From assembly GCA_041686025.1 (NCBI GenBank), contig JAWLEP010000010.1:41396-63729 (forward strand): 22,334 nt of DNA. The letters run 5' to 3'. This document shows, piece by piece, positions 154 through 22,136 of the stretch. Numbering within the stretch: the stretch's first letter is position 1; every line of letters starts with the position of its first letter. Position numbers and translations under genes: made by a program. Under the pieces are notes generated by a model. That model ran no database searches. It was not told the DNA's origin and saw only the letters and a program-made list of their open reading frames with translations. Source of the stretch: Candidatus Fermentibacteraceae bacterium. GTDB taxonomy: Bacteria; Fermentibacterota; Fermentibacteria; Fermentibacterales; JCC-6.

Positions 154-489
154 TCAGTAGGCGTACTCCAGAGAGACCCTGTCCCCGTAGATCCCGATCC
201 AGACGGCGCTGGGGGACTCGTCCTTCTCCGCCGGCAGGCTTACCGTTTCCGTGCGTTCCCGTCCGCTGTACTGGAACGACAGCGTGATCGTCGACCGGGG
301 CGGCAGGGTGATGGAGCACTTCTCGGTCTCCCCCGCTCCGATCCTGTCCCAGGCGGCTTCCTGCTCACCGGCTGCAAGGGCCACATTTGATATGGGAGTC
401 TCCATCCCGTTCTTGATCTCGATGCCGGACTTGCCACAGGAGGCCGTCAGTGCTACGGCCAGCGCCATTGCTGCCAGAGTCAGCCTCAT
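154..489 (-). CDS. Small lipoprotein, hypothetical (111 aa)
   Basis: True start is internal to the 684-aa track ORF: ATG at 489 with an AGGAGG RBS. Signal MRLTLAAMALAVALTAS-C has a lipobox. The mature part is beta-rich. Confidence 0.75.
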   Translation of the reverse strand: MRLTLAAMALAVALTASCGKSGIEIKNGMETPISNVALAAGEQEAAWDRIGAGETEKCSITLPPRSTITLSFQYSGRERTETVSLPAEKDESPSAVWIGIYGDRVSLEYAY

Positions 490-675
490 GTAACCTCCTC
501 TCCTGCAGATCAGCGTTTGCGGATGAATAGAATAGCCTCCGCAAGGCCTCGATGCCAGTGGGAACTTCCGGGGCTTCTCTCCGTTGCCCGTATTGATTAG
601 CTTTCCCCTTCCCGTTTTGGCGTAACCTGTATCGACGGTTCCCTGGCCGTTGCGGCGATGGATGAGAGGTCCCGA

Positions 676-2742
676 ATGAAGCGAGCCCTGCCCAGAGGAG
701 CCCCCCTTGCGGCGGCCCTCATCATGGCCGGTACGGCGGCGGCATACATCGGACCGGGGGCCGGATTCGGCATAGTGACCTCCTTCTTTGTCTTTCTGAA
801 CGCCCTGCTGGTATCGCTGGCCTCCCTCCTCTTCTGGCCGGTGATACTGCTGATCCGGCTGGTGCGCCGTTTCAGGCTGGTCCACAGGCCACGGGCCCGG
901 AGGGTGGTGATACTGGGGCTGGACGGCCTCTCCCCCAGGGTGGCGTCGGAGCTGATGGAGGGCGGGCACATGCCCAACCTGGCCCGTCTGAGGGAGCGCG
1001 GCAGCTTCACCGGGCTGCAGACCACCTGTCCGGGGATCTCTCCGGTGGCCTGGTCCTCCTTCCAGACCGGCGCCAACCCGGGACGTCACGCCATCTTCGA
1101 CTTCCTGAAGCCCGACCGGAAGAGGTACCTGGCGGTGCTCTCCTCGGTGGACACCCGGACCACCGAGACCCCCCGGGGCGTATGGCCCTTCCGCCGACGG
1201 CGGAAGACCACCTCCACCAGTCTGCTGCGTCGCAGCGAGCCCTTCTGGAACCACCTGGGCCGCTGCGGGCTGAGGTCCACCGTTCTCCGGGTCCCCATCA
1301 CCTATCCCCCCGAGAGGCTGGACGGCCATCTGCTCAGCGGCATGTGCGTCCCCGACCTCCGGGGTACGCAGGGGAGCTACACGGTCCTGGCTCCCGGCGA
1401 GGACCCCAGGGCCGCCACCGGGGGAATGGTGCTGTCCCTGACCGAGGAATCGAAAGGGGTGTGGAAGGGAGCGGTGCCCGGCCCGGAGGGCGAAGACGGA
1501 GAGCCGGCGGAGGCTCCCCTGGAGCTGCGCAGCCGCGGCGGCCGCTGGAGGATCACCGTATCCGGGGAGACAGCAGAGGTGGAGCCGGGCATGCTCAGCC
1601 CCTGGATCACAGTCACCTACCGGATCGGCCGCAGCAGGGTCAGGGGAATCACCAGGGCCCGGGTTACCGAGACCCCGCAGGGGCCGAGCGTATACCTCAC
1701 CGCCCTGCACGTGGACCCCTCTTCCCCGGCGGTGCCCATAAGCCATCCCGTCACCTACTCCCGGTACCTGGCCGGGATGCAGGGCCCCTTCGCCACCCTG
1801 GGGCTGGCCGAGGACACGTGGGCCCTCTCCAACGGGGCCACCACCGAGGAGGGCTTCCTGGAGCAGGCGTGGTCCATATTCGAGGAGCGCAGGAAGATGT
1901 GGCGCGATGCCCTGCGGCGAACAAGGCGGGGTCTGGTGGTATGCGTATTCGACACCTCCGACCGCATACAGCACATGTTCTGGGGCCACGGGACCGGCCC
2001 GGAGACCCCCATCGGCGAGATGTACCGGCGAATGGACGACCTCATAGGTGAGACGGCGGAAGCAATGGGACGCAGGGACCTCCTGATAGTCATGTCCGAC
2101 CACGGGTTCACCTCTTTCCATACCTGCGTGGACTTCAACCGGTGGCTCGTGGAGGAGGGGTACATGGTCCTGGAGGACGGCGTCGATACTGTGGAGACCG
2201 GCTTCCACGGCGTGGACTGGAGCCGGACCAGGGCCTACTCCATGGGCCTGGCGGGCATCATGCTAAACCTCCGCGGCCGGGAGGGCCGGGGCATCGTGGA
2301 ACCCGGCGAGGAGGCCGGGGCGCTGCTTGCGGAGATCGCCGAGAGGCTCCGGCGGCTGCGCACCGAAGACGGCAAACAGGTGGTAAGGGAGACCTGGACT
2401 TCATCGGAGGCCTACAACGGCCCCTACACCTCGCAGGGCCCAGACCTGGTGGTGGGAACCAGCAGCGGCTTCAGGGCCGGCTGGGGATGCGTCACCGGCG
2501 GCGTGGGCCCCCGGGTGATATATCCCAACCGGAAGCACTGGAACGGCGACCACTGCCACGCCCGGTCCCAGGTGCCGGGAACGCTGGCCTCCAACTGGGT
2601 GTTCAATTGCGATGGCCAGCCCGACATCATGGACATAGCCCCCACGGTACTGGACGTGATGGGGGCACCCGTTCCCGACTACATGGAGGGCCGGCCCATG
2701 GAGGCCCGCAGACCCCAAGACCGGGGAGGAGACGGCCGATGA
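676..2742 (+). CDS. Alkaline phosphatase superfamily (nucleotide pyrophosphatase/phosphodiesterase-like) protein, membrane-anchored
   Basis: VVILGLDG, TTCPGISPVAWSSFQTG (Ser at the nucleophile position), DRIQH, SDHG and GDH metal-ligand motifs. N-terminal signal-like segment ends AAA, then YIGPGAG, a long hydrophobic helix and an Arg-rich stretch. GAGAGG RBS before ATG 676. Confidence 0.88.
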   Translation: MKRALPRGAPLAAALIMAGTAAAYIGPGAGFGIVTSFFVFLNALLVSLASLLFWPVILLIRLVRRFRLVHRPRARRVVILGLDGLSPRVASELMEGGHMPNLARLRERGSFTGLQTTCPGISPVAWSSFQTGANPGRHAIFDFLKPDRKRYLAVLSSVDTRTTETPRGVWPFRRRRKTTSTSLLRRSEPFWNHLGRCGLRSTVLRVPITYPPERLDGHLLSGMCVPDLRGTQGSYTVLAPGEDPRAATGGMVLSLTEESKGVWKGAVPGPEGEDGEPAEAPLELRSRGGRWRITVSGETAEVEPGMLSPWITVTYRIGRSRVRGITRARVTETPQGPSVYLTALHVDPSSPAVPISHPVTYSRYLAGMQGPFATLGLAEDTWALSNGATTEEGFLEQAWSIFEERRKMWRDALRRTRRGLVVCVFDTSDRIQHMFWGHGTGPETPIGEMYRRMDDLIGETAEAMGRRDLLIVMSDHGFTSFHTCVDFNRWLVEEGYMVLEDGVDTVETGFHGVDWSRTRAYSMGLAGIMLNLRGREGRGIVEPGEEAGALLAEIAERLRRLRTEDGKQVVRETWTSSEAYNGPYTSQGPDLVVGTSSGFRAGWGCVTGGVGPRVIYPNRKHWNGDHCHARSQVPGTLASNWVFNCDGQPDIMDIAPTVLDVMGAPVPDYMEGRPMEARRPQDRGGDGR

Positions 2743-4721
2743 AGCGCAGGGAGTTCCTGAGGCTCGCATCACTGTCGCCGCTGGCCCTGCTGGCCCTGAG
2801 ATCCGGCATTGCCCGGGCCTCCGGGCGCGCCCGCCGGGTGATAGTCCTGGGCATCGACGGCATGGATCCGGGACTGCTGCGCAGGTTCGTCTCCCAGGGA
2901 CGCATGCCCAACGCCGCCCGGCTCATGCAGATGGGCGGAATGAGGCCCCTGGGCACCAGCAACCCGCCGCAGAGCCCCGTGGCCTGGTCGAGCTTCATCA
3001 CCGGTGCCGGCCCCGACGTTCATGGCATATACGACTTCATCCACCGGGACGCCGAGACCATGGCCCCCTTCCTCTCCACCTCGGAGGTAACCGACTCCGG
3101 TGACTCCATCGGAATAGGCAAGTGGAGGATTCCCACCGGAGGCGCGGACGTGAAGCTCCTGCGCCGGGGCCGTCCCTTCTGGAGCCACATCACCGACGAC
3201 GGCATACCCGCCTCCCTGATCAAGCTCCCCGTGGACTTTCCCCCCGGCGCCGGAAGGGCCCGGATCCTGTCCGGCCTGGGGACCCCCGACCTCCGGGGCA
3301 GCCAGGGCAGCTTCACCTTCTTCACCGACGACCCCCGGGCGCTCTCCGACGACACCGGGGGAGGCATAATCCGAGCGGTCAGGGACTACGGCGACGGCCT
3401 CTACGAGTGCCGCCTGGAAGGCCCCGAGAACACCATGCTGGAGAGCGGGGGCAAGATGGAGGTCCCGCTGAACGTATGGATCGACCGCGGCTCCCGGGGA
3501 GTGCGGATAGACGTATGCGGGGAGAGGGTTGTCCTGGGCGAGGGCCAGTGGAGCCCCTGGGTCTCCCTGTCCTTCGACCTGATTCCCGGAATCTCCAGCG
3601 TCAACGGCATCGCCCGCTTCTTCCTCAAGGAGGCGGGCCGCTACCTGAAGCTCTACGTGACGCCCATAAACATCGACCCCAGGAGCCCGGCCCTGCCCAT
3701 CTCCAGCCCCGACCACCTCAGCTCCGACCTGGCCCGGGCGGTGGGCCCCTTCTACACGCAGGGCTTCCCCGAGGACACCAAGGCGCTCTCCCGTGGCGTT
3801 CTCAGCGACGCCGAGTACATGCAGCAGGCGGAGATCGTCCTGGCCGAGAGGATGAAGCTCTACGAGCATTCACTGTCCAACTTCGATGACGGCCTGTTCT
3901 TCTTCTACTTCACGTCGCTGGACCTGAACGTGCACATGTTCTACAGGGCCATAGACAGCGAGAGCCCCCTTCACGCCCAGGTGGACATGGGAAGCTTCGG
4001 GGACGTGGTGGCCGACCTGTACGGCAGGATAGACAGGGCCATCGGAATGGCCATGGAGCACATGGACGACCGCACCGTGCTGCTGGCGCTCTCCGACCAC
4101 GGCTTCGCGCCCTTCAGGAGGTCGTTCAACCTCAACAGCTGGCTGGCGGCCGAAGGCTACGCCACGCTGGGCGACCCCTACAGCCGCGACCAGGACATGT
4201 ACGCCGCCGCGGACTGGTCGGAAACCTCCGCCTACGGGCTGGGCCTCAACGGTCTCTACATAAACCTCCGCGGCCGGGAGAGGGACGGCGTGGTGGCTCC
4301 GGCCGAGAAGGACAGGCTCATGGAGGACATAGCACGGCGTCTGGAATCCGCCACGGATCCGGCCACCGGCCGGAGCGTGGTGCGCAGGGCCTACATCACA
4401 GACCGCGTCTTCGGCCCCGACCAGCCTCCTTGGGCCCCCGACATGCTGGTGGGATACGCCAACGGCTACCGGGCCTCATGGGAGACGACTCTGGGGGCCT
4501 ATCCGGAGGAAGTGATAACCGACAACCTCGACCCCTGGAGCGGCACACACTGCACCAGCCCCGCGGTTGTTCCGGGCACCCTCCTTTCCAGCGTCCCCAT
4601 AGCGCTTGACACCCCCACCCTCATGGACATGGGCCGTAGCGTCTGCTCGTTGCTGGGCACCTCCACGCAGCCGGCCCACGGGCGGGACGTCTTCGACGAC
4701 GAACCGGAGACCCGCGCCTGA
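2739..4721 (+). CDS. Tat-exported alkaline phosphatase superfamily (NPP-like) protein, paralog of the upstream gene (660 aa)
   Basis: ATGA overlap with the previous stop and a GGAGGAG RBS. Twin-arginine signal MKRREFLRL...IARA. Motifs VLGIDG, TSNPPQSPVAWSSFITG, DLNVH, SDHG and GTH. Confidence 0.88.
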   Translation: MKRREFLRLASLSPLALLALRSGIARASGRARRVIVLGIDGMDPGLLRRFVSQGRMPNAARLMQMGGMRPLGTSNPPQSPVAWSSFITGAGPDVHGIYDFIHRDAETMAPFLSTSEVTDSGDSIGIGKWRIPTGGADVKLLRRGRPFWSHITDDGIPASLIKLPVDFPPGAGRARILSGLGTPDLRGSQGSFTFFTDDPRALSDDTGGGIIRAVRDYGDGLYECRLEGPENTMLESGGKMEVPLNVWIDRGSRGVRIDVCGERVVLGEGQWSPWVSLSFDLIPGISSVNGIARFFLKEAGRYLKLYVTPINIDPRSPALPISSPDHLSSDLARAVGPFYTQGFPEDTKALSRGVLSDAEYMQQAEIVLAERMKLYEHSLSNFDDGLFFFYFTSLDLNVHMFYRAIDSESPLHAQVDMGSFGDVVADLYGRIDRAIGMAMEHMDDRTVLLALSDHGFAPFRRSFNLNSWLAAEGYATLGDPYSRDQDMYAAADWSETSAYGLGLNGLYINLRGRERDGVVAPAEKDRLMEDIARRLESATDPATGRSVVRRAYITDRVFGPDQPPWAPDMLVGYANGYRASWETTLGAYPEEVITDNLDPWSGTHCTSPAVVPGTLLSSVPIALDTPTLMDMGRSVCSLLGTSTQPAHGRDVFDDEPETRA

Positions 4722-5536
4722 TGGCCGCCGTCAGGGGAGCCCTGGATCTGCTCTTCGACGCCGTGACCTGGCCCCTGGGGGGCACCCGTCCCCTGTGGGG
4801 CCTGATCCTGGTGTCCCTGCTGTCCGGCCTGTGGATGATACTGCTGTTCAAGACCGCGTCTCCGCAGCGGGCCATCAAGCGGCTTCGCCGCAGGATGGGG
4901 GCCCAGGCCCTGGGCATGCTGCTCTACCTCTCCTCCCCCCTGCAGGTGCTGCGCCTGGCCGGAGGGCTGCTGTGGAGCAACTTCCTCTACCTGGGGATGA
5001 TACTCCTGCCCCTGGCGGTGATAGCCCTTCCCTTCGGACTCACCTACGGCCAGCTGGAGGCCAGGTACGGCCGCGGGTATCCCGCCGCCGGGGATACTCT
5101 CACGGCCACCGTCGAGTACGCAGTAGACCCCCCCGGCGATGAGGAGGTGGTCTCCCCGTCGCGGGGCCTGGCTCCGCTGCCGCCTCTGGTGACCATCGAT
5201 TCACTGCGGCAGGTTAGCTTCCGGCTTAGATTGGAAGAGACCGCCCCCAGGTCCCTGGCGACGGCCGGGGAAGAGCTCCCCGTTGGACGCCGGTCCCTTC
5301 GGTCCGGGAGCATCGTCTACTCCGGGGCCGAGACCCCTTCGGCGGCCTCGGTCTTCCGGCCGGGGAACATGATCATCTCCCCGGAGGCCAGGGACTCGCT
5401 GCGCTCCTTCCGGGTTTCGATTCCCGGCCGGGATTACCATGTTCTGTGGAGGGGATGGTCCTGGCTGGCCGTATTCCTGGTGTTCTCCACGCTTTCGGCC
5501 GTGGCGGGAGCCATCGTTTTCAAGGTAAGGGTATAG
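4721..5536 (+). CDS. Integral membrane protein, DUF106/EMC3-TMCO1 (Oxa1 superfamily)-like architecture
   Basis: Translationally coupled (TGATG). Amphipathic N-terminus, TM1, basic helical loop (SPQRAIKRLRRRM), Pro-containing TM2, a soluble insertion, then C-terminal WSWLAVFLVFS TM3 ending KVRV. Family assignment is by pattern only. Confidence 0.7.
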   Translation: MAAVRGALDLLFDAVTWPLGGTRPLWGLILVSLLSGLWMILLFKTASPQRAIKRLRRRMGAQALGMLLYLSSPLQVLRLAGGLLWSNFLYLGMILLPLAVIALPFGLTYGQLEARYGRGYPAAGDTLTATVEYAVDPPGDEEVVSPSRGLAPLPPLVTIDSLRQVSFRLRLEETAPRSLATAGEELPVGRRSLRSGSIVYSGAETPSAASVFRPGNMIISPEARDSLRSFRVSIPGRDYHVLWRGWSWLAVFLVFSTLSAVAGAIVFKVRV

Positions 5537-5552
5537 ACGGGACGGAGGAGGA

Positions 5553-5753
5553 ATGGCCAAGAAGCTGAAGATAAAGATGGAGCCCGAGATGCTGGAGCGG
5601 ATACGCAAGGTGGCCAGGGCCGGCGGCTACTCCTCGGAGCAGGAGTTCGTGATGCACGTCCTGGAGCGGGAGCTTGCGCAGCTCGACCCCGGCGACGCCG
5701 AGTCCGAGGAGGAGATCCGCAAGAAGATGGAGGGGCTGGGCTACATCTCCTAG
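5553..5753 (+). CDS. Small ribbon-helix-helix (CopG-like) protein with a C-terminal EEEIRKKMEGLGY tail
   Basis: Strong GGAGGAGG RBS. Alternating beta strand KLKIKM, helix PEMLERIRKVARAG, GYSS turn, helix EQEFVMHVLERELAQL. Confidence 0.8.
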   Translation: MAKKLKIKMEPEMLERIRKVARAGGYSSEQEFVMHVLERELAQLDPGDAESEEEIRKKMEGLGYIS

Positions 5754-5780
5754 CCGTCCCCTTTTCTCCGTCCCCTTTTC
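5754..5780. repeat. Tandem direct repeat CCGTCCCCTTTTC x2 filling the convergent intergenic gap
   Basis: Exact 13-nt copies at 5754-5766 and 5768-5780. Confidence 0.8.
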
Positions 5781-5781
5781 G

Positions 5782-6198
5782 CTACAGGTAGCCCAGGTCG
5801 GAGAGCTTCTTCCTTATCTCCTCTTCCTCGTCGGGATGGACGTCGTGCTCCGGGGGCGGAACCAGTCCGGCCAGCTCCAGCTCGCGGACGAAAACGTTCA
5901 TCATGTTCTTGCTCTCGAGCATCTCCTCGGAGACCTTCCGCACCTCCACCTCGTCGAGGCTGACGTCGGGCATCTCCGAGCAGCCGGAGGTTATCACGAT
6001 CACGCCGTGGCGGGCCAGCATGCCGCAGGCGGCAGCCTTGCCGTTGGCGCTGGTGTCTCCCACTCCCATCTTCTCCAGGGCGTTCCTGTGCAGGACCTCC
6101 ACCCTTCCCCCCCGGGACAGAAGCTCCCGTCCCAGGCTGTCGGCCATCCCGTCGGCCTGCTCGCTGTCGGAGGCGATCCAGATGACTACGCCCTTCAT
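5782..6198 (-). CDS. Degenerate adenylyl-sulfate kinase (CysC)-like protein lacking the P-loop, with a C-terminal EEEEIRKKLSDLGYL tail (138 aa)
   Basis: ATGA overlap with the sat stop. MKGVVIW..., ELLSRGGRVEVL and MLARHGVIVIT follow the CysC N-terminal pattern, but GxSGxGKS/T, DGD and the lid region are absent. Confidence 0.7.
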   Translation of the reverse strand: MKGVVIWIASDSEQADGMADSLGRELLSRGGRVEVLHRNALEKMGVGDTSANGKAAACGMLARHGVIVITSGCSEMPDVSLDEVEVRKVSEEMLESKNMMNVFVRELELAGLVPPPEHDVHPDEEEEIRKKLSDLGYL

Positions 6199-7358
6199 CC
6201 GTTCTCCTTCCCGGACTTTGCCGCCCGCATAAGTATCTCGGCTATCTCCGGCCTGGTGAACTCCTCCGGAGGCGTCCTTCCCTCTCTGAGCATGGCCCGG
6301 ACCTTCCTGCCGGAGAGGAAGATGTGCTGGTCTCCGCCGTGGGGGCAGGTCTTGGCGGTGGCCATGCCCTGGCACCTGACGCAGTAGAAGGCGTGCTCGA
6401 ACTTCAGCGGCACCACCTCCAGCTCATCCTCGTCAATGCCCTCGAATATCATCTGCGCGTCGTAGGTGCCGTAGAAGTCCCCCACGCCGGCGTGGTCGCG
6501 GCCCACGATGAAGTGGCTGCACCCGTAGTTCTTTCGCAGGAGCGCGTGGAAGACGGCCTCCCGCGGGCCCGCGTAGCGCATGGCGGCGGGGAAGACGCTC
6601 ATGGCAACCCTGGTCTCGGGGTAGTACCTCTGCAGTATCTCGTGGTAGCACTCCATGCGCACCTCGGCGGGGATGTCGTCGGACTTGGTCTCCCCCACCA
6701 GGGGGTGCAGCAGCAGGCCGTCCACTATCTCCAGGGCGCACTTCTGTATGTACTCATGGGCCCTGTGGATGGGATTGCGGGTCTGGAACGCCACCACGCT
6801 CTTCCAGCCCTTGGCTCGGAATAGCACCCGTGTCTCCTTGGGGTCCAGGCGGTACTGGGCGAAGGTCTCCTCGTCGCGCCGTCTTATCGCACGGACTCTG
6901 CCGCCGATGTACCGGCCGGAGAGTCCTCTCAGGTAGGCGACTCCGGGATGGGAGCCGTCGGTGGTGCCCAGGCATTTCTCCGCCTCGTGGTCGAGGTCGG
7001 CCCGGTACACGTCGGTGATCTCGATGTCGCCCCAGACCCTGCCGTTCCCGTCGCGCAGCGCCGCGCGGTCGCCGGACTGCACCTCCGGGTCGTCGGGCTT
7101 CACCGAGAGGGTAACGGGGAGCGACCAGACGGGGCCCGAGGAGAGGTGCATCAGGTCCACCACGCCTATGTAGTCGTGGCGGTCCATGAAACCCTCCAGC
7201 GGACTCATGGCTCCGTTGGATATCATCTCCAGGTCGTTGAGCTCCCTGGAGTTCACCGTAAGGGAAGGCAGATCCGAGGCTTCCTGCAGCAGGGCCTCCG
7301 CCTCCTCCCCCTCCAGCTGTCTGTCTATCAGTCTGCCTCCATGCGGGGCAACCAGCAT
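6195..7358 (-). CDS. sat: Sulfate adenylyltransferase (ATP sulfurylase, Sat type), 387 aa
   Basis: MLVAPHGGRL start, FQTRNPIHRAHEY, MRYAGPREA, HFIVGRDHAG and the CxxC...CPH Zn site. Confidence 0.97.
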   Translation of the reverse strand: MLVAPHGGRLIDRQLEGEEAEALLQEASDLPSLTVNSRELNDLEMISNGAMSPLEGFMDRHDYIGVVDLMHLSSGPVWSLPVTLSVKPDDPEVQSGDRAALRDGNGRVWGDIEITDVYRADLDHEAEKCLGTTDGSHPGVAYLRGLSGRYIGGRVRAIRRRDEETFAQYRLDPKETRVLFRAKGWKSVVAFQTRNPIHRAHEYIQKCALEIVDGLLLHPLVGETKSDDIPAEVRMECYHEILQRYYPETRVAMSVFPAAMRYAGPREAVFHALLRKNYGCSHFIVGRDHAGVGDFYGTYDAQMIFEGIDEDELEVVPLKFEHAFYCVRCQGMATAKTCPHGGDQHIFLSGRKVRAMLREGRTPPEEFTRPEIAEILMRAAKSGKENG

Positions 7359-7432: not shown

Positions 7433-7460
7433 ATTATACCGTTCATCAACCGCCCGGCAA
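7433..7460 (-). promoter_or_regulatory. Sigma70-type promoter for the sat operon
   Basis: Minus strand TTGCCG (7460-7455), 16-nt spacer, perfect TATAAT (7438-7433), about 75 nt upstream of sat. Confidence 0.6.
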
Positions 7461-7623: not shown

Positions 7624-8501
<878 letters not shown>

Positions 8502-8505
<4 letters not shown>

Positions 8506-9257
8506 GGGCCGTTTGGACCTTCGCCCTGATGACCATGCGCAGCCTCCTGCGCCGCCGGACGATCTGGGGAATAGTCCTGGTCATCATCCTGGCGCTGCTG
8601 GGAATCGGCCAGGTGCCGTCCTTCGACGTGTCCGGCCAGAGCCGCTTCATCGTAGAGTTCGGCCTCTTCGGACTGGAGATGGGGGCGCTGCTGCTGGCCA
8701 TCGGCCTGGCCTCCAACATATACCCCCGCGACCGGGAGAACAGGACCATACAGCCCCTTCTGGCGGTCCCCCTTTCCCGCGTGCGCTACCTGCTCGGCCG
8801 GTTCCTGGGGGCCGCCATCGTCTCCGGAGCGGCAATGCTGGTGGGCTGCCTCGGCCTTATGCTGGTGCTGACCCTCAACGGCTTCGAGATTCCCACCTCT
8901 CTGCTTCCCGCCACCCTGCTTCTTCTGGTGGAGGGCTGGTTCCTCCTGGCGGTGGTTTTCTTCTTCAGCTTCTGGACCTCCCCGCCCCTGAACGCCCCCC
9001 TGACCGTGATGATATTCATCGTCTCGCAGATGAGCGTCCGGGAGTTCGTGGGACTGCTGCCGGGGGCATCGGGTCTGATGCGTACCCTGAGGCTCCTGCT
9101 GCCTCACATGGACGTCTTCCACATCAAGGACCCCATTGCCCACGGGATCGACGTTCCCCTGGTCTACTTCCTCCTGGCGGCGCTGTACGGAATCGCCTAC
9201 TCCGTCTTCATGCTCTCCGTGGCCCTGGCCGTGTTCAGGGAGCGTGACCTGCGATGA
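8502..9257 (+). CDS. ABC-2 type transporter permease (251 aa)
   Basis: ATGA overlap with the ATPase gene. About six TM helices and a DRENRTIQPLLAVPLSRVRYLLGRFLG loop typical of ABC-2 permeases. Confidence 0.9.
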
Positions 9258-9613
9258 GGAGACCTTTTGTTCTTCTTGCCGTAGCGCTGCTGGCAGCCGG
9301 CTGCGGCGGGAAGGCCGACTACGACATCGCCGAGGTGGCCCCGGACGAGCACCTCTCCGGCGAACACGGGAACCATCACCAGGGTCATGACCATGGAGGT
9401 GATGACGTCGAGAGGGACATCTCCGGCGCCGTGGAGAACAGGCATCACCACGAGCCGGGGGTGCGCAACCACGGCACGCAGTGGTTCTTCAACCAGCCCT
9501 GGGCGGCACCCTTCATATGGGACAAGATAGTCAGGGACTCCGTCATCCTTCTGGTCCTGGCGGCGGCCGTGCTCCTGTTCTCCCGGCTGACGGGGCGAAG
9601 ATGGCAGCGCTAG
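9254..9613 (+). CDS. His-rich lipoprotein with a C-terminal transmembrane helix
   Basis: ATGA overlap, lipobox LAAG-C, His clusters (EHGNHHQGHDHG, RHHHE), C-terminal hydrophobic helix and basic tail. Confidence 0.75.
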   Translation: MRRPFVLLAVALLAAGCGGKADYDIAEVAPDEHLSGEHGNHHQGHDHGGDDVERDISGAVENRHHHEPGVRNHGTQWFFNQPWAAPFIWDKIVRDSVILLVLAAAVLLFSRLTGRRWQR

Positions 9614-10296
9614 GAAAGGCCTCCAGGGTACTGTTTCCGCTGGCCGTGGCCGCTTTCGCCCTGTCGCTGGCCATCGTCTCCGGCCGGGAGGCCTCCCGGC
9701 ACATCGGCGGGGAATCCCCCTCCCTGGAGGTGCTCTCCTCGGGCCTGGACCAGATACGGGGCTTCATCGGGGACGTAATCTACCTCAAAATCGACGCCTA
9801 CCATCACATCTGGATGTACCAGGGACACGGCTGGGCAGAGGCCACAGACTACCTTCCGATGGTCTGGCTGGTCAGCAGGCTCAAGCCAGGATACACTCAG
9901 AACTACATCGACGGGGGCTATCACCTGGCGGTCAACCTGGGTCGCGTAGAGGAGGGCATAGACTTTCTTCGGAGGGGGATAAGGATGTGCCCCGACGACC
10001 CAGGCCTGGCCTGGGAATACGCAGTTGTACTCTGGAGGACGGAGTACGGCGACCCCGAGATGAGGAGGAGGGCGTTCCGTTCCTATCTGAGACTTGTCCG
10101 AAGAAGGCGGGGAGAGACGGATGCGCCGTGGAATGAGCCCAACGCCCTGATGATACTGGGGAATCTATACGAGAACGGGATTGACAAGAGAGCAGGCAGG
10201 AGGATATCCCGACTCTATCATACATTCGCAGACAATATGAGAGCCCTGCGCAGAGTCCGCAGAGGGCTGGACCGGCCTACGCCCCCGCAGAGGTGA
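9601..10296 (+). CDS. Membrane-anchored helical/TPR-like protein (reminiscent of PilG/XapA-type ABC accessory proteins)
   Basis: N-terminal TM, GFIGDVIYLKIDAY, L-K-P-x-Y...Y..GGY.L and EEGIDFLRRGIRMCPDD TPR-like helices. Last gene of the ABC operon. Confidence 0.65.
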   Translation: MAALGKASRVLFPLAVAAFALSLAIVSGREASRHIGGESPSLEVLSSGLDQIRGFIGDVIYLKIDAYHHIWMYQGHGWAEATDYLPMVWLVSRLKPGYTQNYIDGGYHLAVNLGRVEEGIDFLRRGIRMCPDDPGLAWEYAVVLWRTEYGDPEMRRRAFRSYLRLVRRRRGETDAPWNEPNALMILGNLYENGIDKRAGRRISRLYHTFADNMRALRRVRRGLDRPTPPQR

Positions 10297-11098
10297 ACAC
10301 CAGCATGTTGGGCCCGGACAGCTCGTCCCAGCTCTCGTAGCCCCTCTCGAACAGCCTGCCCAGAGCATCCCTCGATTTCTCGGGTACGATGATGCTGTGC
10401 TCGGAAAGCCCCCGTTCTGCCGCATGGGACGAGACACCGTCCCGCAGCTCATCCATGTGTTTCAGCCCCGCGCCCAGGGGGATGTAGCAGTTTCCCGACC
10501 GCTGGGCCAGGAAGACCGCCGGGCCGCACCGGAGGGCCTCCACCCGCTGCAGCAGCCACTCCCTGCCCTCGGGGGTGTTGCGGACGAAGGTCCACCCCGC
10601 CGAGAGGTGGCCGCCCATGGCGGCAAGCTCCTCCTCCACCTCATCCGCCGGCTCCACCGGCGCGGCGGAGTCGGGAATGCCGGGCCGGGTGACGATGTAG
10701 AAGCCCTCCACGATGTGGAAGCCCATGTCGGTGGCGATGGCTATGCTCTCGGAGTTGTGGACGTAGGTGGCGAACTCCATCGCCGTGGCCTCCCCGGCCT
10801 CGATGGCGGACCATCCGACCTCTGCGGCGAACTCCACCAGGCGCCGGCCGTAGCCCCGGGAGCGGAAGTCGGGATGGACCCTCAGGCCCTCCAGCCAGAT
10901 CACGCCGGAGGGCATCCGGGTCACCTTCACCGCGCCGATCACCTCCCCCTCTACCTCCCCCACGAAGAGCCCGCCCTCGGATATCCAGCGGGCCGCAACC
11001 GTCTCCAGGTAGTCCGACCCCTCCCATGTGCTCCTGGAGATCTCAGCCAGCCTGGGGAGGTCGCTGTAGTCCGCGAGCCTGGTGCGAAGCTCGGTCAC
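10277..11098 (-). CDS. GNAT family N-acetyltransferase (273 aa)
   Basis: GTG start overlaps the GGDEF gene stop (GTGA). Acetyl-CoA motif LEGLRVHPDFRSRGYG and N..S....GF. Confidence 0.85.
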   Translation of the reverse strand: MTELRTRLADYSDLPRLAEISRSTWEGSDYLETVAARWISEGGLFVGEVEGEVIGAVKVTRMPSGVIWLEGLRVHPDFRSRGYGRRLVEFAAEVGWSAIEAGEATAMEFATYVHNSESIAIATDMGFHIVEGFYIVTRPGIPDSAAPVEPADEVEEELAAMGGHLSAGWTFVRNTPEGREWLLQRVEALRCGPAVFLAQRSGNCYIPLGAGLKHMDELRDGVSSHAAERGLSEHSIIVPEKSRDALGRLFERGYESWDELSGPNMLVFTSAGA

Positions 11099-12408
11099 CG
11101 TTGCCCCCTTTCCTTCCTCTTGGCACGTTTCTCCACGTACATTCTGTCGTCGGCCATGGTGAGCAGTTCTCCCAGCACCGCTTCCGCCCCGTCCACCCGG
11201 ACGAACCCGGAGCTGAGGGCCAGATGGAATCCCAGCTCCCCGGAGGCGTTGAGCTCCGAGAGAGAACGGGACAGACGGCTTCTCAGAACCTCTCCCTCTC
11301 CGGGCTGCGAGTCTCCGAACAGGACCGCGAACTCGTCTCCCCCCAGCCTGGCCGTCACGTCGGACTCCCGGAAGCAGCCACGAAGCAGGCGGCCGGTCTC
11401 GACGATGGCCCGGTCTCCCGATGCGTGACCCTGGGAGTCGTTTATCTCCTTGAGGCCGTCGAGGTCTGCGAAGAGGACCCCCACATGCGAGGATCGTCTC
11501 CTTGCCTCCCTTATCACCTGCTTGCCCACGGCGAAGAACCCCCGCCTGTTGTAGAGGCCCGTCATGCTGTCGTGGAGCGACATCTCCCGAAGCCGTCCCT
11601 CCAGCTCCTTCCTCCTGGCTATGTTCACGAAGGAGAAAACGCCGCAGAGGGGGCTGCCATCCGGCTGGCAGGCGAGCACTCCGGAGGCCATGGCCGGGAA
11701 CGCATCCCCGTCGGCCCTCGCGCAGACCACCTCCCCCCTCCACTCCCCCAGCTCCACGATCGCCTGGGAGATGGAGTTGAAGGCGCCCTCCTGCAGGAGC
11801 TGCCTCATGTGGGCGCCCTCCATGTCGCCTAAGGAGGTGCGCCACGCCCGGAGGGCGGAACGGTTGGCGTAGGAGACCCGCCAGTCGCCGTCGGTGATTA
11901 CCAGGGGGGCCAGGGAGGCCTCCAGGGCGCTGTTGCGGGTCTTCAGCTCCCTCTCCCTCATCCTGCGCTGCGTGCTGTCCCGCAGGGTGACCAGAAGGGC
12001 GCTGCCGCCTTCGCCCGACACCAGGCTCAGGGTCATGTCCATGGGAAGGCGGCCCCCGGCGGAGGTGAGAACGGGGGTGTCCACGAATACCCCGTCGGCC
12101 AGTCCGTAGGCCACCTCCCCTCCCCCGGGAGACTCGTCCCTGTCGGGGAGTATCTCGTGGATCCTCCTGCCCGCCAGCTCCGCCGGATCGTATCCCAGCT
12201 TCGTCAGGGCTGCGTCACTGGCCTTCTCGATGACTCCGTTCGACGGGTTCACCAGGAGCAGGACGTCGATGGAGTTCCTGAAGACCAGCTCCAGCTTCGC
12301 CACCTTCTCCAGCAGCGCCTCGCGGTGCTTCCTCGACATGGCCAGCTGACCGAAGGCCTCCCTCAGCCGCCTGACGTTGGACCTGACCACTCCCTGATCT
12401 TCGGACAT
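11095..12408 (-). CDS. PAS-PAS-GGDEF diguanylate cyclase (437 aa)
   Basis: AAGGAG RBS before ATG 12408. Two PAS-like segments, HDSMTGLYNRR, DLDGLKEINDSQGHASGD, an RESD I-site and an intact GGDEF. Confidence 0.93.
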   Translation of the reverse strand: MSEDQGVVRSNVRRLREAFGQLAMSRKHREALLEKVAKLELVFRNSIDVLLLVNPSNGVIEKASDAALTKLGYDPAELAGRRIHEILPDRDESPGGGEVAYGLADGVFVDTPVLTSAGGRLPMDMTLSLVSGEGGSALLVTLRDSTQRRMRERELKTRNSALEASLAPLVITDGDWRVSYANRSALRAWRTSLGDMEGAHMRQLLQEGAFNSISQAIVELGEWRGEVVCARADGDAFPAMASGVLACQPDGSPLCGVFSFVNIARRKELEGRLREMSLHDSMTGLYNRRGFFAVGKQVIREARRRSSHVGVLFADLDGLKEINDSQGHASGDRAIVETGRLLRGCFRESDVTARLGGDEFAVLFGDSQPGEGEVLRSRLSRSLSELNASGELGFHLALSSGFVRVDGAEAVLGELLTMADDRMYVEKRAKRKERGQR

Positions 12409-12525
12409 GCTCCTTCTCTTCCCGTGTTCGGCTCGTTGCCATCCGCCTATATCTCTACCATCTTTGTCCCGGGTCAAGTCCCGCCGGCTGGCCCTGCCGG
12501 CCACTTCCGGCGGAGAGGATGAAAG

Positions 12526-13050
12526 GTGGATATGGAACGCAGGAAGAGGGTATTCGACTTTCTCGACCGCAAGAGCGAAGCGTACATTCTCAAGGCCTGC
12601 AAGCCGGTGGAGACAAGGGCGGGAAGCCTGCTGGTCAGAGCCGGAGACCGCTCCTCCGACCTCTACATAATCACCGGCGGTGAGTACATGGTCTTCGACG
12701 ACAGCAAGGGCGAGGAGTTCGTCCTGGCCATACTCAAGCGGGGAGACATCTTCGGCGAGATGTCCTTCCTGGACGGTGAGCCCCGGTCGGCGTCCGTCAA
12801 GGCGGTCACCGCTTCCCAGGCCCTGCGCATGGACCGGGACAGCCTGAACGGGCTTCGGGAGGAGGCGCCGGAGGCCGCGTGGAAGCTGGTGATGGGGCTG
12901 GCCAGCGTGGTCACCACCAGGCTGCGTCGGGCCGACGACGCCCTGACCATGACCACCAGCGAGGACCCCGAAGAGGTGGACCGCGACGAGCTGGACCGCC
13001 TGATAGCCGAGATGCACCTGGCCGTCCACCTGGAGCTGGACCGGGACTAA
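12526..13050 (+). CDS. Cyclic-nucleotide-binding domain protein without HTH (alternative start ATG 12532)
   Basis: LYIITGG, GDIFGEMSFLDGEPRSASV phosphate-binding cassette, C-helix and short acidic tail. Confidence 0.88.
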   Translation: MDMERRKRVFDFLDRKSEAYILKACKPVETRAGSLLVRAGDRSSDLYIITGGEYMVFDDSKGEEFVLAILKRGDIFGEMSFLDGEPRSASVKAVTASQALRMDRDSLNGLREEAPEAAWKLVMGLASVVTTRLRRADDALTMTTSEDPEEVDRDELDRLIAEMHLAVHLELDRD

Positions 13051-13051
13051 G

Positions 13052-13076
13052 AGCGGAGCCCGCCCGGGGCTCAGCT
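13052..13076. terminator. Hairpin between the convergent cNMP and tex genes
   Basis: GAGCCC-gcccg-GGGCTC stem (13056-13072) extended by AGC/GCT. No clear U tract. Confidence 0.4.
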
Positions 13077-15200
13077 TCCCTTTGCCCCCTGCAGAGAAAG
13101 CGAGATCCTGCCCCGCTCCAGGTCCACGGACAGTACCCGCACCGTGACCCTGTCCCCCACCTTGGCGTAGTCGGAGGGGTCCCGTACGTACTCGTCCGCC
13201 ATCTTGCTTATGTGGACCAGACCGTCGTTCTTCACCCCCACGTTCACGAATGCTCCGAAAGCGGTGACGTTGGTCACGATACCCGGCAGCGACATGCCCT
13301 CCCTGAGGTCTTCCATGGTGTGCACATCGGCGAACCTGAAGGGGCGGAAGCTCTCCCTGGGGTCCCTTCCGGGCTTCTCCAGCTCCTCCATGATGTCCCG
13401 CAGGGTGGGCAGGCCGGTGTCCCCGTCGACGAAGTCCGCAAGCCTCACCCGCCGACGCAGCTCCCGGCTCTCCATGAGGTCGCCCACCGAGCGGTCCAGG
13501 CTGGCGGCCATCCTCCGTACCGCTCCGTAGCTCTCCGGATGTACCGCGCTGGCGTCCAGGGGCTCGGGGCCGCCCGGAACGCGGAGGAAGCCGGCGCACT
13601 GCTGAAACGCCTTGGGTCCCAGTCCCCTGACTTCCAGAAGCTCCTGGCGGGTGCGGAAAGCTCCGTTCGTCTCGCGGCGCTGCACAACCCTGCGGGCCAG
13701 CTTCGGACCCAGGCCGGAGACGTAGGACAGCAGCTGGGGGCTGGCGGTGTTCAGGACCACCCCAACGGTGTTCACGCAACTCTCAACAACGTCGTCCAGG
13801 CGTCGTTTCAGAAGCCCCTGGTCCACGTCGTGCTGGTACTGTCCGACCCCTATGGACTTGGGGTCCAGCTTCACCAGCTCGGCCAGCGGGTCCTGCAGCC
13901 TCCTGCCTATGGACACCGCCCCCCTCACCGTCACGTCCTGGTCCGGCAGCTCCTCCCTGGCCACTTCGGAGGCGGAGTAGACGGAGGCGCCGCTCTCGCT
14001 CACCGTGGCCACGGCGGCTCCGCACAGGTCCATGGAGGCCAGGAAGGACTCGGTCTCCCTTCCCGCGGTTCCGTCCCCCACCGCTATGACCTCGGGGGAG
14101 TGGGCCTTCAGCAGGCGGGCCAGGGCCTCCGTCGCCGCCCTCCGGCCCCCCTCGCCCTGGAACGGGTATATGGTCGCGGTCTCCAGAAGAGCGCCGGTTC
14201 CGTCCAGGCATACCACCTTGCAGCCGGTTCTGTAGCCCGGGTCCACGGCCATTACCGGCTTCCTGCCCAGGGGAGGGGCCAGAAGCAGGCTGCGCAGGTT
14301 GGAGGCGAACACCTCCACCGCCTTGCGGTCGGCCCGCTCCCTGGTCACCGACCTGATCTCGGTTTCCATGGAGGGGGCCAGAAGCCTCTTCCAGCAGTCG
14401 TCCAGGGCCATCTCCACCTGCTCCGCGTCCGGACCCCGGCCCTTCAGGAACTCGTCGCGGAGTATCGAGGCGGCGGCCTCCTCGGGGACCTCCACGGAGA
14501 GGTTGAGCACCAGCTCCCTCTCCCCCCTCCGCATGGCCAGGACCCTGTGAGACGGCGCCCCGGCCACCGCCTCGGTGTGATCGAAGTAGTCGCGGAAACG
14601 GGAGCCCTCCTTCTCCTTTCCGGCGATTACGGAGGCCCTGAACCTTCCCCCCTCCAGGTAGAGGCGTCTCATCCTCCGCCTGACTGCGGGGCTGTCGGAG
14701 GCCATCTCGGCCACTATGTCCCGCGCCCCCTGGAGGGCGTCCTCCGGGCCGTCCACGCCCTTTTCCGGGTCCACGTAGGACCCCGCCGAGGAGACTCCGC
14801 GGCCTCCCTCCTGGCGAAGAAGGGTCTCCGCAAGCGGCCCAAGGCCCCTGTTCCTGGCCCGGCTGGCCCTGGTCTTCCTCTTCGGCCGGAAGGGCCGGTA
14901 CAGGTCCTCCAGACGGGCCATGGTGTCGGCCCCGGCCAGCTGCTTCGAAAGCTCGGCGGTAAGCAGGTCCCGCTCCCGCAGCGACTCCAGTATGGACTCC
15001 CTCCTGGAGTCCAGCTCCCGCATCCGCCGGACGCCGTCACGTACCGCCGCGATCTCCACCTCGTCCAGGCCCCCGGTCCGCTCCTTGCGGTAGCGGGCAA
15101 TGAAGGGAACCGTGGCGCCGTCTTCCAGCAGCCGAAGCGTCGCCCTCACCTGGGCCTTGCCCCTGCCTATCTCCCCGGCTACCGCCGCTGCGTAGTCCAT
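13071..15200 (-). CDS. tex: Tex family RNA-binding transcription accessory protein (709 aa)
   Basis: GATVPFIARYRKERTGGLDE, LEDLYRPFRPKRKTRA, YqgF-like AVDPGYRTGCK, VSESGASVYSAS, IGVGQYQHD and a C-terminal S1 domain. Confidence 0.96.
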   Translation of the reverse strand: MDYAAAVAGEIGRGKAQVRATLRLLEDGATVPFIARYRKERTGGLDEVEIAAVRDGVRRMRELDSRRESILESLRERDLLTAELSKQLAGADTMARLEDLYRPFRPKRKTRASRARNRGLGPLAETLLRQEGGRGVSSAGSYVDPEKGVDGPEDALQGARDIVAEMASDSPAVRRRMRRLYLEGGRFRASVIAGKEKEGSRFRDYFDHTEAVAGAPSHRVLAMRRGERELVLNLSVEVPEEAAASILRDEFLKGRGPDAEQVEMALDDCWKRLLAPSMETEIRSVTRERADRKAVEVFASNLRSLLLAPPLGRKPVMAVDPGYRTGCKVVCLDGTGALLETATIYPFQGEGGRRAATEALARLLKAHSPEVIAVGDGTAGRETESFLASMDLCGAAVATVSESGASVYSASEVAREELPDQDVTVRGAVSIGRRLQDPLAELVKLDPKSIGVGQYQHDVDQGLLKRRLDDVVESCVNTVGVVLNTASPQLLSYVSGLGPKLARRVVQRRETNGAFRTRQELLEVRGLGPKAFQQCAGFLRVPGGPEPLDASAVHPESYGAVRRMAASLDRSVGDLMESRELRRRVRLADFVDGDTGLPTLRDIMEELEKPGRDPRESFRPFRFADVHTMEDLREGMSLPGIVTNVTAFGAFVNVGVKNDGLVHISKMADEYVRDPSDYAKVGDRVTVRVLSVDLERGRISLSLQGAKGS

Positions 15201-15295
15201 CCTGCTTCCTTTGCCATCATGAGTACCCGCCCGAAGTCGAAGGGCGAAGATAAGCACCGGCGACCGCCCTATCCAGGCCCCGGAAGTGCCGGAGC

Positions 15296-15324
15296 TTGAG
15301 TTGCGGGGGGCCATGTAGTAGAAT
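15296..15324 (+). promoter_or_regulatory. Sigma70-type promoter for fusA
   Basis: TTGAGT, 17-nt spacer, TAGAAT. Confidence 0.55.
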
Positions 15325-15356
15325 ACCCATGCCGGCCAGATAGATACGCAACTACG

Positions 15357-15392
15357 AAACAGCCGCTTCGGCGCCACCGGGGCGGTGTTTTT
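15357..15392 (+). terminator. Terminator-like hairpin in the fusA 5' leader (possible attenuator)
   Basis: AAACA-g-CCGCTTCGG / cgcca loop / CCGGGGCGG-TGTTT, with the T run continuing to 15392. Confidence 0.45.
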
Positions 15393-15429
15393 CCATCCGC
15401 CCCCACCGGGGCAACGGGAGGCGAGCAGC

Positions 15430-17514: not shown

Positions 17515-18110
17515 AGCCCCAGCCTCTCCATCTCCCGCCTGAGGGCCTCCAGGGCCCTTCGGCGGTGGCTTACGGCGTTCTTCTCCTCCGGAGCGCATTC
17601 GGCGAAGGTCCTGCCCAGCTCGGCGGAGAGGAAGACGGGATCGTACCCGAAGCCCTCTTCTCCCCTGGGCTCCCGGGCTATCTCCCCCCGGACCTCCCCA
17701 TGGACGCATACCTCGCCGCCATCCGGGATCACCAGCGCAGCCGCGGTAACGAATGCCGCCCTCCTCCGCCCGCCGGTCTCCCCCCGCAGGGCATCCAGCA
17801 GCTTCCGGACGTTGTCCGCGTAGCTGCAGTCGCCCCCTGCGTACCTGGCGCTGTATATGCCGGGAGCCCCCCCCAGGGCGCTTACCGACAGGCCGGTATC
17901 GTCCGCCAGCGCCGGCAGCCCGGTAGCGGCGGCGGCAGCCCGGGCCTTCAGCAGGGCGTTCTCCTCCAGCGTGCAGCCGGTCTCCTCCACGTCCCAGTCT
18001 CCGACCAGCTCACCGACGGGGACCGGCTCCAGGTGGAGGCCGTCCAGGATCCCGGCCATCTCCCGCAGCTTGTCCGGGTTGGCCGTGGCTATCACCAGCC
18101 TGCCGCTCAC
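17511..18110 (-). CDS. rdgB: Non-canonical purine NTP pyrophosphatase (XTP/dITP diphosphatase, Ham1 family)
   Basis: [33 protein letters not shown] and KNAVSHR. Confidence 0.95.
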
Positions 18111-18823
18111 TCCCCCACGGCCTCCCTCTGCACGGGGACCACCTCGTCCACAACGGCCGCTACCGCTTCCCGCATCATGTCGGCAGCGGTCTGGGGAGGA
18201 ACCGCGTCCTTCTCCGCAGAGGCCTGCACCTCAACGAGTCCGCCGTCCTCCATGGCCACCACGTTCATGTCCATGGTTGCCGAGGAGTCCTCCTCGTAGC
18301 AGAGGTCCATCAGGACCTCTCCGCCGCAGAGGCCCAGGCTCACCGCGCCCACGAACCCCAGGAACGGGTCGATCTCCAGCTTCTTCTCCAGCAGGAGCCG
18401 CTTCAGAGCCAGCCGCAGGGCCACCGCGCCGCCGGTTATGGATGCCACCCTGGTGCCCCCGTCGGCCACCAGGACGTCGCAGTCCACCGTAATGGTCCTC
18501 TGGCCGAGGCGTTCCAGGTTGACCGTCTGCCTGAGGCTGCGGCCGATGAGCCGCTGTATCTCCTGGCTCCGTCCCTTGATCCATCCCCCCCGGTCCCTGC
18601 GGACCCTCCGGTTGCCGCTTCCCGGAAGCATGTCGTACTCGGCGGTGACCCAGCCGCTGCCCTTTCCCAGCAGAAACCGCGGAACCCTGTCTTCCACCGA
18701 GGCCGAGCAGATCACTCTGGTGTCGCCCCAGCTGATAAGGGCGCTTCCGTCGGGCAGCGGCTGGTACCCGGTCTCTATCTCTATCTTTCTCAGCTCATCG
18801 GGCTCTCTGCCGTCTACGCGCAT
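18107..18823 (-). CDS. rph: Ribonuclease PH
   Basis: MRVDGREPDELR, GWVTAEYDMLPGS, GRSQEIQRLIGRSLR, ADGGTRVASITG and DLCYEEDS. Confidence 0.97.
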   Translation of the reverse strand: MRVDGREPDELRKIEIETGYQPLPDGSALISWGDTRVICSASVEDRVPRFLLGKGSGWVTAEYDMLPGSGNRRVRRDRGGWIKGRSQEIQRLIGRSLRQTVNLERLGQRTITVDCDVLVADGGTRVASITGGAVALRLALKRLLLEKKLEIDPFLGFVGAVSLGLCGGEVLMDLCYEEDSSATMDMNVVAMEDGGLVEVQASAEKDAVPPQTAADMMREAVAAVVDEVVPVQREAVGE

Positions 18824-18881
18824 CAGATCTCCAATGCAGTTGGGTTTGAATCCGGGGCTCTGCGGGCTGCAGGGGAGCGGG

Positions 18882-21942: not shown

Positions 21943-22006
21943 ATACCTCCGTTCAGGTGAGGAATATACCTGTCTCGACGCCCCACCCAAATCGCAGCCC
22001 GGGGTA

Positions 22007-22035: not shown

Positions 22036-22046
22036 CGCCGGGCAAC

Positions 22047-22134: not shown

Positions 22135-22136
22135 CG

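Follow-up and report, generated by a model that had tools for sequence, protein, structure and literature searches.

A widespread, sulfation-linked and apparently undescribed membrane module built around two AlkP paralogues and an LGY-tailed partner

In a 22,334-nucleotide stretch of a Candidatus Fermentibacteraceae genome (contig JAWLEP010000010.1; the whole stretch is called the window below), we identified four genes that are conserved as a unit. They encode two members of the alkaline phosphatase (AlkP) superfamily, AlkP1 and its paralogue AlkP2, a small ribbon-helix-helix (RHH)-like protein that ends in Leu-Gly-Tyr (RHH-LGY), and an Oxa1/DUF106-like membrane protein. The module spans about ten phyla besides Fermentibacterota and probably serves sulfation outside the cytoplasm. 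It is apparently a widespread but undescribed system: the open-access literature (subscription papers lay outside this coverage) yielded no description of the module or of its LGY tag. We tentatively propose, with a confidence that stays somewhat below even, that LGY is a tag which carries the sulfo group as sulfotyrosine on either face of the membrane, that the paralogous AlkPs swap sulfo groups with an N-terminal tyrosine shuttling along the Oxa1-type protein, and that LGY-tailed 'sulfatases' are terminal glycan sulfotransferases.

The four genes follow one another on the forward strand as AlkP1 (676..2742), AlkP2 (2739..4721), the membrane protein (4721..5536), and RHH-LGY (5553..5753). Two reverse-strand genes converge on them, namely sat (6195..7358), a single intact copy of sulfate adenylyltransferase, and pseudo-CysC (5782..6198), a 138-amino-acid remnant of an adenosine 5'-phosphosulfate (APS) kinase without its P-loop. 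Within both runs, genes overlap (ATGA, TGATG) or are separated by a 16-nt gap, and the stop codons of RHH and pseudo-CysC lie 28 nt apart. The list of open reading frames (ORFs), the sequence, and the translations agree on all six genes, just as a first-pass annotation of the window had placed them. That annotation took the facing operons for one system. The four-gene module is indeed conserved; by contrast, the convergent sat operon and pseudo-CysC proved to be features of the lineage. Among 70 Fermentibacterota genomes, the AlkP2 query found 66, sat 65, intact cysC 62, and pseudo-CysC 36. We rejected the convergent layout as a functional unit: by hand count, sat lies within ~4 kb of AlkP2 on the same contig in only 24 of the 66 AlkP-positive genomes, and in genera g7 and g8 it never adjoins the module. 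Pseudo-CysC, missing from many genomes and from all 27 of these two genera, was likewise dropped as an essential part. The RHH gene of families f2 and f3 is found on the opposite strand and, wherever sat and pseudo-CysC can be seen, lies behind them; every locus of these families in which sat is close to AlkP2 (five in f2, one in f3) has it reversed.

Outside the phylum, a search with three seed patterns, among them the N-terminal YxGPG motif of AlkP1, confirmed at least 580 stretches, of which the best 80 were kept as loci. By title, most belong to Acidobacteriota, and the remainder include Planctomycetota, Myxococcota, Dadabacteria, Binatia, Bdellovibrionota, Spirochaetia, Verrucomicrobia, Longimicrobiales, Eisenbacteria, and others. 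The membrane gene is present in 71 of the 80 and RHH-LGY in 70; full-length AlkP2 was counted by hand in 62, with contig ends cutting several. Plasmids gave no AlkP1 match at E 1e-30.

The module co-occurs with sat, cysC, and sulfotransferase genes across phyla, which upholds the association that the first-pass annotation had staked its proposal on. Three gene types alternate as neighbors in the best 80 loci: a sulfotransferase (25 loci), a short NPP-like AlkP (16), and sulfS, a Thr-type AlkP (15), while 24 loci have none. No locus contains two of these putative loaders, a pattern that none of 20,000 naive shuffles matched, with the caveat that kin are not independent. Short AlkP neighbors occur with or without sat/cysC. 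Overall, cysC adjoins the module in 7 of the 80 loci, sat in 4, and sulfatase-like genes in 38. The module-linked sulfotransferase is a 200-amino-acid protein (PF13469/PF00685) with a GLPRSGTS loop, and its nearest solved relatives are tyrosylprotein and phenol sulfotransferases, weak matches (26, best E 3.5e-5) that cover mostly the loop binding 3'-phosphoadenosine-5'-phosphosulfate (PAPS). In an AlkP1 tree (FastTree; 32 of 80 forks weak), the loader labels cluster yet switch several times inside supported clades, with two sulfotransferase loci in a sulfS clade and one sulfS locus in a sulfotransferase clade. This interchange suggests that sulfate is first placed on a cytoplasmic entity that travels with the module, and RHH-LGY is the only candidate for such a recipient.

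Gene order and fusions tie the parts together further. In two loci (L204, L206), a single strand reads RHH2-LGY (a second RHH-LGY type), sat, sulfS, cysC, AlkP1, AlkP2, RHH, and membrane gene, which places the loader type of our source genome between two PAPS-making genes. In L172-L175, the order is RHH2-LGY, sat, cysC-LGY, short AlkP, and then the module. An intact CysC-LGY fills the place of pseudo-CysC in other phyla, and the window's pseudo-CysC is best read as a decayed CysC-LGY. Among the best 150 of 15,699 homologues, we found fusions of sulfotransferase to AlkP1 (P0163), AlkP1 to RHH-LGY (P0176), and AlkP to a sulfatase with LGY (P0241), as well as an AlkP with a C-terminal membrane domain that weakly matches the membrane-gene profile (P0212); each is a single record in which read-through errors are possible. 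Further fusions are a UbiA-AlkP (P0227) and double-AlkP-TPR proteins (P0196, P0239), and at one locus (L153:9734-14224) a single reading frame encodes both AlkP1 and AlkP2 with a signal-like stretch between them.

In an evenly sampled set of 121 Acidobacteriota genomes, 28 have a full-strength RHH-LGY match (E <1e-20). Another 14 weaker matches were set aside; six of the seven mid-strength ones are module copies, and the weakest represent the second RHH-LGY type. The sulfotransferase, often far from the module, is present in 24 of the 28 module-bearing genomes versus 6 of the 93 others, and in those six no module was found near it. The four module-bearing genomes without it comprise one with sulfS, two with an adjacent short AlkP, and one with no assigned loader. 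Among 101 Planctomycetota genomes, RHH-LGY occurs in 15 and sulfS in 7, and all seven of the latter are module-bearing and lack the sulfotransferase. In both phylum samples, the link to sulfation is thus kept at the level of whole genomes.

AlkP1 and AlkP2 share 37% identity and match PF01663 with 108 and 106 bits, respectively (cut-off 23). AlkP1 begins with a predicted signal peptide (residues 1-23, ending A-A-A), followed by the motif Y24-IGPGAG (745..765, forward strand), a hydrophobic helix, a basic stop-transfer stretch, and the bimetal domain. This order of signal-like segment, helix, and basic run predicts that the catalytic domain is inside and Tyr24 outside. AlkP2 starts with a twin-arginine signal (MKRREFL) and is predicted to be exported, so that the two domains would face opposite sides of the membrane. 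A lipoprotein cysteine found in 19 of 19 AlkP2 relatives checked is absent from the window copy, and the AlkP2 N-termini outside the phylum, judged by eye and uncounted, are mostly lipoprotein-signal-like. The metal-site and nucleophile residues of AlkP1 are D83, S122, D429, H433, D475, H476, and H626; in alignment, the Ser122 codon (1039..1041, forward strand) falls where phosphonoacetate hydrolase (PhnA) has its nucleophile. AlkP2 has a complete metal site, with Ser79 at the nucleophile position. All seven positions (six metal ligands and the serine) are conserved at 0.99 or above in 74 AlkP1 and 63 AlkP2 sequences. The AlkP1 model is confident (predicted local distance difference test, pLDDT, 94), and its nearest PDB structures are NPP, PhnA, and PafA at 10-13% identity; a PDB sequence search with AlkP2 returned PhnA alone, at E 0.4. 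Neither protein has the formylglycine motif C/S-x-P-x-R, reading S-P-V-A-W instead.

The N-terminal tyrosine of AlkP1 is invariant in all 74 sequences of alignment A6, which had been picked on the YxGPG motif itself. The motif recurs in all 80 outside loci, for which it was a search seed, and in all 19 Fermentibacterota copies examined. The first-pass annotation had cast the AlkP pair as envelope transferases; its idea of a membrane-crossing group agrees with our reading, and this tyrosine is what it overlooked. Distant long AlkP homologues (P0189, P0210, P0218, P0228, P0253, and others) start with YxDPG instead and perhaps belong to related systems for other groups.

RHH-LGY comprises 66 amino acids with an invariant G25 and a G-L-G-Y64 tail. 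Its fold assignment comes from Arc/RHH_1 matches below cut-off, and of 8,000 candidates that were scored, at least 6,441 belong to its family. The first-pass annotation had noticed that RHH and pseudo-CysC, proteins of unrelated folds, end in the same peptide, and this proved real. Their tails, EEEIRKKMEGLGYIS and EEEIRKKLSDLGYL, share EEEIRKKxxxLGY. A tail pattern composed after the proteins had been seen has 13 matches among the 32,168 six-frame ORFs of the genome, 12 of which are RHH, pseudo-CysC, and ten sulfatase-like proteins, which speaks against chance. Recent DNA duplication as the source of the matching tails was ruled out because their synonymous codons differ. Near the module, LGY tails also occur on DUF2061 proteins, on a CysD-like protein, on CysC in its intact form, and on exported TPR-like lipoproteins of 160-170 amino acids. 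The DUF2061 and CysD-like proteins adjoin the module at L112:9611-9907, L125:6185-6475, and L189:16608-17405. The small lipoproteins are divergent from the module at L092:9159-9641, L132:9021-9509, L139:8899-9414, and L141:7313-7810, and are seen again at L204, L205, and L206; non-catalytic by sequence, they are candidate outer carriers. The second RHH-LGY type leads runs of sat, cysC, and short AlkP genes (L172:7514-7729, L166-L169, L171, L176, L177, L201), some without a module nearby, and in L104 RHH-LGY has an additional N-terminal domain.

Complex predictions had been suggested by the first-pass annotation, and the AlkP1-RHH pair was run as two copies of RHH with two Zn and an AlkP1 from which the N-terminal helix had been removed. 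The complex scored 0.77 in three runs, and the best of three controls reached 0.03. Of 157 solved complexes, 116 attain this mark, as do 2 of 215 mismatched pairs, a calibration that applies roughly (own alignments, ligand). Contacts agreed to at least 91% between runs, with a partner pLDDT of 81. On RHH, they involve residues 22-35 (the GYS patch) and 49-66 (the tail); on AlkP1, they involve a PDLRGTQG loop, W382, the metal ligand H433, W622, and D625. The RHH tail is thus predicted to insert into the active-site cleft of AlkP1. When we divided the interface by our own reading of the contact list, 15 of 36 cleft residues were common to AlkP2 (background 142 of 609), versus 1 of 14 in the docking patch for GYS. 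A cleft kept in both paralogues and a patch kept only in AlkP1 are what one would expect if AlkP2 binds the LGY tail of another partner.

In its model (pLDDT 92), the membrane protein starts with an N-terminal helix and a membrane helix; a helical hairpin follows, predicted in the cytoplasm, and then a second helix, a beta domain predicted outside, and one last helix. Its earlier label, 'DUF106-like', survives at a distance: of four distant homologues, one passes PF01956 (L149, 30.5 bits, cut-off 27.1), a second scores 18.4 (L118), and two have no match. By contrast, neither the window protein nor 32 close kin match PF01956. The rank-9 Atlas cluster for the protein (score 0.85) contains 17% PF01956, and fold searches returned generic hairpin matches (Z up to 8.6), the Get1 hairpin among them. 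With neither a Pfam nor a clear fold match, we dropped a direct DUF106 assignment. The protein may distantly resemble the Oxa1 superfamily (YidC, EMC3/TMCO1/DUF106) in the predicted order of amphipathic helix, helix, cytoplasmic hairpin, and two helices, and in the homologue that passes PF01956. It differs from that superfamily in having an extra outer beta domain and in serving one gene module, where its role would be carrier movement.

The source genome (94.75% complete) would activate sulfate without a reductive outlet that we could find. Sat passes both curated profiles (NF003166, 529 versus a cut-off of 387; TIGR00339, 415 versus 323), which bears out its earlier description as intact. 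Pseudo-CysC is a weak APS-kinase match (E 0.002; NF002059 17.7 bits versus a cut-off of 244) with no Pfam match (PF01583), and 15 aligned copies have no GxxGxGKS P-loop. An intact, unlinked cysC lies on contig C40, so that the donor is likely PAPS, which is made in the cytoplasm. CysH-type reductase (PF01507), AprA, and sulfite reductase (PF01077) have no match in the genome, and we therefore set aside a role of Sat in sulfate reduction. As the first-pass annotation had stated, no reductase or P-loop sulfotransferase is found in the window; the genome has two P-loop sulfotransferases at other places (G000:C6:57243-58000 and C60:7229-8059), neither orthologous to the module-linked type. One of them is near LicD/GT9 and ends in LSQSLGYLP, and the other follows an O-antigen-ligase-like gene.

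Eleven proteins of the genome match PF00884, namely sulfS and ten sulfatase-like proteins (G000 contigs C7, C8, C14, C19 (two), C26, C33, C35, C40, and C73; L001-L010). All ten carry LGY-type tails and a threonine at the formylglycine position, and most have a lipoprotein signal. The arginine of the formylglycine motif is absent from all of them, the site reading T-L-P-[SA]-x (WTLP[SA]), and they are candidate terminal sulfotransferases. SulfS (G000:C6:18814-19719; L011:1321-2223) is a 301-amino-acid protein without a signal peptide, is unlinked to the module, and occurs as a single copy in 67 of the 70 Fermentibacterota genomes; it is a candidate PAPS-using sulfotransferase of AlkP fold. Divergent from one sulfatase-like gene (G000:C73), a DASS/CitMHS permease with TrkA-C domains (L217:1904-3709) is a possible sulfate importer.

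The relay that we propose from these parts would begin with PAPS made by Sat and the unlinked CysC. A cytoplasmic loader, here sulfS on contig C6 and elsewhere a P-loop sulfotransferase or short AlkP, would sulfate Tyr64 of RHH. RHH would then dock on AlkP1 with its tail in the bimetal cleft, and the sulfo group would pass via Ser122 onto the YxGPG tyrosine. The Oxa1-like protein would provide the path by which the N-terminal peptide of AlkP1 crosses the membrane, and exported AlkP2 would use Ser79 to unload the sulfo group onto exported LGY tails, here those of the ten sulfatase-like lipoproteins, which would in turn sulfate glycans. Aryl-to-aryl transfer would keep the sulfo group activated. 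That the LGY tyrosine is a covalent carrier we regard as evenly balanced, and the full chain from PAPS to a surface acceptor falls just short of that. The covalent intermediates, the membrane crossing, and the acceptor are what we infer here. The first-pass annotation had the AlkP pair carry a group from APS or PAPS all the way to the acceptor. The predicted opposite faces and the link to sulfation fit that claim; the pair itself, however, probably sits in the middle of the chain, because a separate cytoplasmic loader and exported LGY-tailed enzymes are encoded elsewhere in the genome.

Several observations weigh against this relay. It is a computational proposal throughout, in which structure prediction covers AlkP1-RHH docking only. 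NPP-type active sites normally attack phosphorus. The first three residues of the AlkP1 motif are modeled at pLDDT <50 on the distal tip of a 41-residue helix, so that Tyr24 would need a large movement to reach the cytoplasmic active site. The contact list of the complex contains no Tyr64 pair and does not name Ser122, so that the tyrosine-to-metal geometry is conjectural. At seven loci (L100, L110, L116, L125, L127, L130, L159), AlkP1 is accompanied by RHH and the membrane gene while no AlkP2 adjoins it. Loader exclusivity fails genome-wide, as four Acidobacteriota hold a short-AlkP cluster together with an unlinked sulfotransferase. Across the Acidobacteriota and Planctomycetota samples, the sulfotransferase also occurs in 12 genomes without RHH, and in Planctomycetota it accompanies only 5 of the 15 module-bearing genomes (versus 6 of the 86 others). 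For the remaining ten, another loader had been predicted beforehand, and we found seven with sulfS, two with adjacent short AlkPs, and one with none. Finally, a scan of 35 neighbors of the sulfatase-like lipoprotein genes revealed no glycan gene clusters and hence no indication of an acceptor.

In one alternative, the module exports sulfate for surface sulfation, with an LGY tail that only docks or acts as a lid and is never sulfated. AlkP1, completed by RHH, would then take PAPS or a small aryl sulfate and load its N-terminal tyrosine or a lipid flipped by the Oxa1-like protein. Every co-occurrence result is compatible with such a scheme. The C-terminal tail of choline sulfatase shapes an active site in just this manner (PMC5870055; here and below, we draw on the accessible parts of the cited papers), a further point against the carrier role; insertases scramble lipids (PMC11047089); and LGY also ends CysC, the CysD-like protein, and a P-loop sulfotransferase. 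Yet a docking tail explains neither the need for a separate, interchangeable loader nor the free LGY tails on exported, non-catalytic lipoproteins, nor why the tail residue of RHH is specifically a tyrosine, and no other aromatic, in 74 of 74 sequences. We therefore consider this alternative unlikely, if the most serious of those we weighed.

We find it improbable that the AlkP pair consists of hydrolases (nucleotide or sulfate esterases) that aid sulfation indirectly, by clearing PAP or APS or by recovering sulfate, or of phospho- or nucleotidyl transferases. The two-metal site is complete and NPP-like, and the closest solved structures, distant as they are, are hydrolases. However, hydrolysis leaves the invariant outer tyrosine, the dedicated membrane protein, the predicted cleft peptide, and the strict pairing of a cytoplasmic with an exported paralogue unexplained, and the exported paralogues lack the arginine of the formylglycine motif. 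Still less probable is a signaling role, in which AlkP1 holds RHH as a transcription factor at the membrane and modification or release of its tyrosine regulates sat/cysC. RHH is a DNA-binding fold (by weak matches), a second RHH-LGY leads sat-cysC runs, and RHH is predicted to bind AlkP1; but in a weak test the regions upstream of AlkP1 (20) and sat (25) shared no dyad or 8-mer above shuffles, and the exported LGY tails would have no part. Least probable is a scheme in which the membrane protein oligomerizes and lets PAPS itself out for direct use by exported enzymes. It is simple and meets the need of the exported sulfatase-like enzymes for a donor, but it has to work with three helices holding few conserved basic residues and makes cytoplasmic AlkP1, RHH, and the loader superfluous.

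The module shares features with several known systems. With NPP, phosphonoacetate hydrolase, and PafA (PF01663), the AlkP pair has the fold, the six metal ligands, and the nucleophile position in common; it differs in its low identity, a serine in place of threonine, a large beta insertion, its placement on both membrane faces, and a predicted peptide ligand. Periplasmic aryl-sulfate sulfotransferases transfer sulfo groups from aryl sulfates outside the cytoplasm independently of PAPS, but they belong to a different family (no such Pfam match here), use small-molecule donors, and have no membrane relay. The Dlt (DltB/DltX/DltD) and PatA/PatB shuttles set a precedent for a group that crosses on tyrosine (PMC12148441). 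In these MBOAT-SGNH systems, a group activated in the cytoplasm crosses on an invariant tyrosine of a short terminal peptide and meets a covalent serine intermediate on an exported enzyme, a likeness of logic only (PMC12148441). By contrast, their group is acyl rather than sulfo, MBOAT and SGNH domains and the FxYxxF motif known from the accessible description are absent from the six window proteins, and our module combines paired AlkP paralogues and an Oxa1-like protein with two motifs (LGY and YxGPG).

Agl30/Agl31 (VNG1056C/VNG1057C) of Halobacterium salinarum are sulfatase-like members of the AlkP superfamily for which deletion and heterologous expression show glycan sulfation; donor and mechanism are left open, and C-terminally tagged versions are active (PMC11980604). 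Compared by description only, they come closest to sulfS and to the sulfatase-like lipoproteins scattered over the genome, and are unlike the NPP-like pair of 660-690 amino acids; the accessible part of that report mentions no RHH-LGY or membrane partner (PMC11980604). In choline sulfatase, as in our predicted complex, a terminal peptide of another chain lies at the entrance of an AlkP-fold active site (PMC5870055). That tail, as far as described there, is part of the homo-oligomer of a formylglycine hydrolase, whereas LGY is a portable tag that recurs on proteins of unrelated fold, cytoplasmic and exported alike.

The module offers a concrete route for sulfation outside the cytoplasm, a mode undescribed in bacteria if our reading is true. 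It would then also suggest how AlkP-fold sulfotransferases, Agl30/31 among them, may be supplied with a donor, add sulfo groups to the acyl groups known to shuttle on tyrosine, and give an Oxa1-type protein a new job. Many 'sulfatase' genes of Acidobacteriota, Planctomycetota, and Fermentibacterota would build sulfate esters, which would affect how sulfur cycling is read from metagenomes. Sulfated exopolymers occur in granular sludge and anammox biofilms, with producers and enzymes described as unknown in the accessible part of the source (PMC7356697), and a 2024 review, so far as it is accessible, notes that bacterial polysaccharide sulfotransferases may escape profile searches (PMC11625862).

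Elsewhere in the window, a small predicted lipoprotein without a family match (154-492, reverse strand) is divergent from AlkP1. Upstream of sat, a sigma-70-like site (TTGCCG-16-TATAAT; 7433..7460, reverse strand) is weak, with one such site found versus 0.8 expected. Divergent from sat, positions 7624-10296 (forward strand) encode the ATPase and the permease of an ABC-2 exporter together with a His-rich lipoprotein and a TPR protein, none of them recurrent neighbors among the 80 outside loci. Positions 10277-22135 form an unrelated housekeeping context with GNAT, PAS-GGDEF, cNMP-binding, Tex, and amidase genes; it also contains genes that we take, by their motifs, for EF-G, RdgB, RNase PH, MurI, and SmpB, and near 21953-22040 a probable tRNA.

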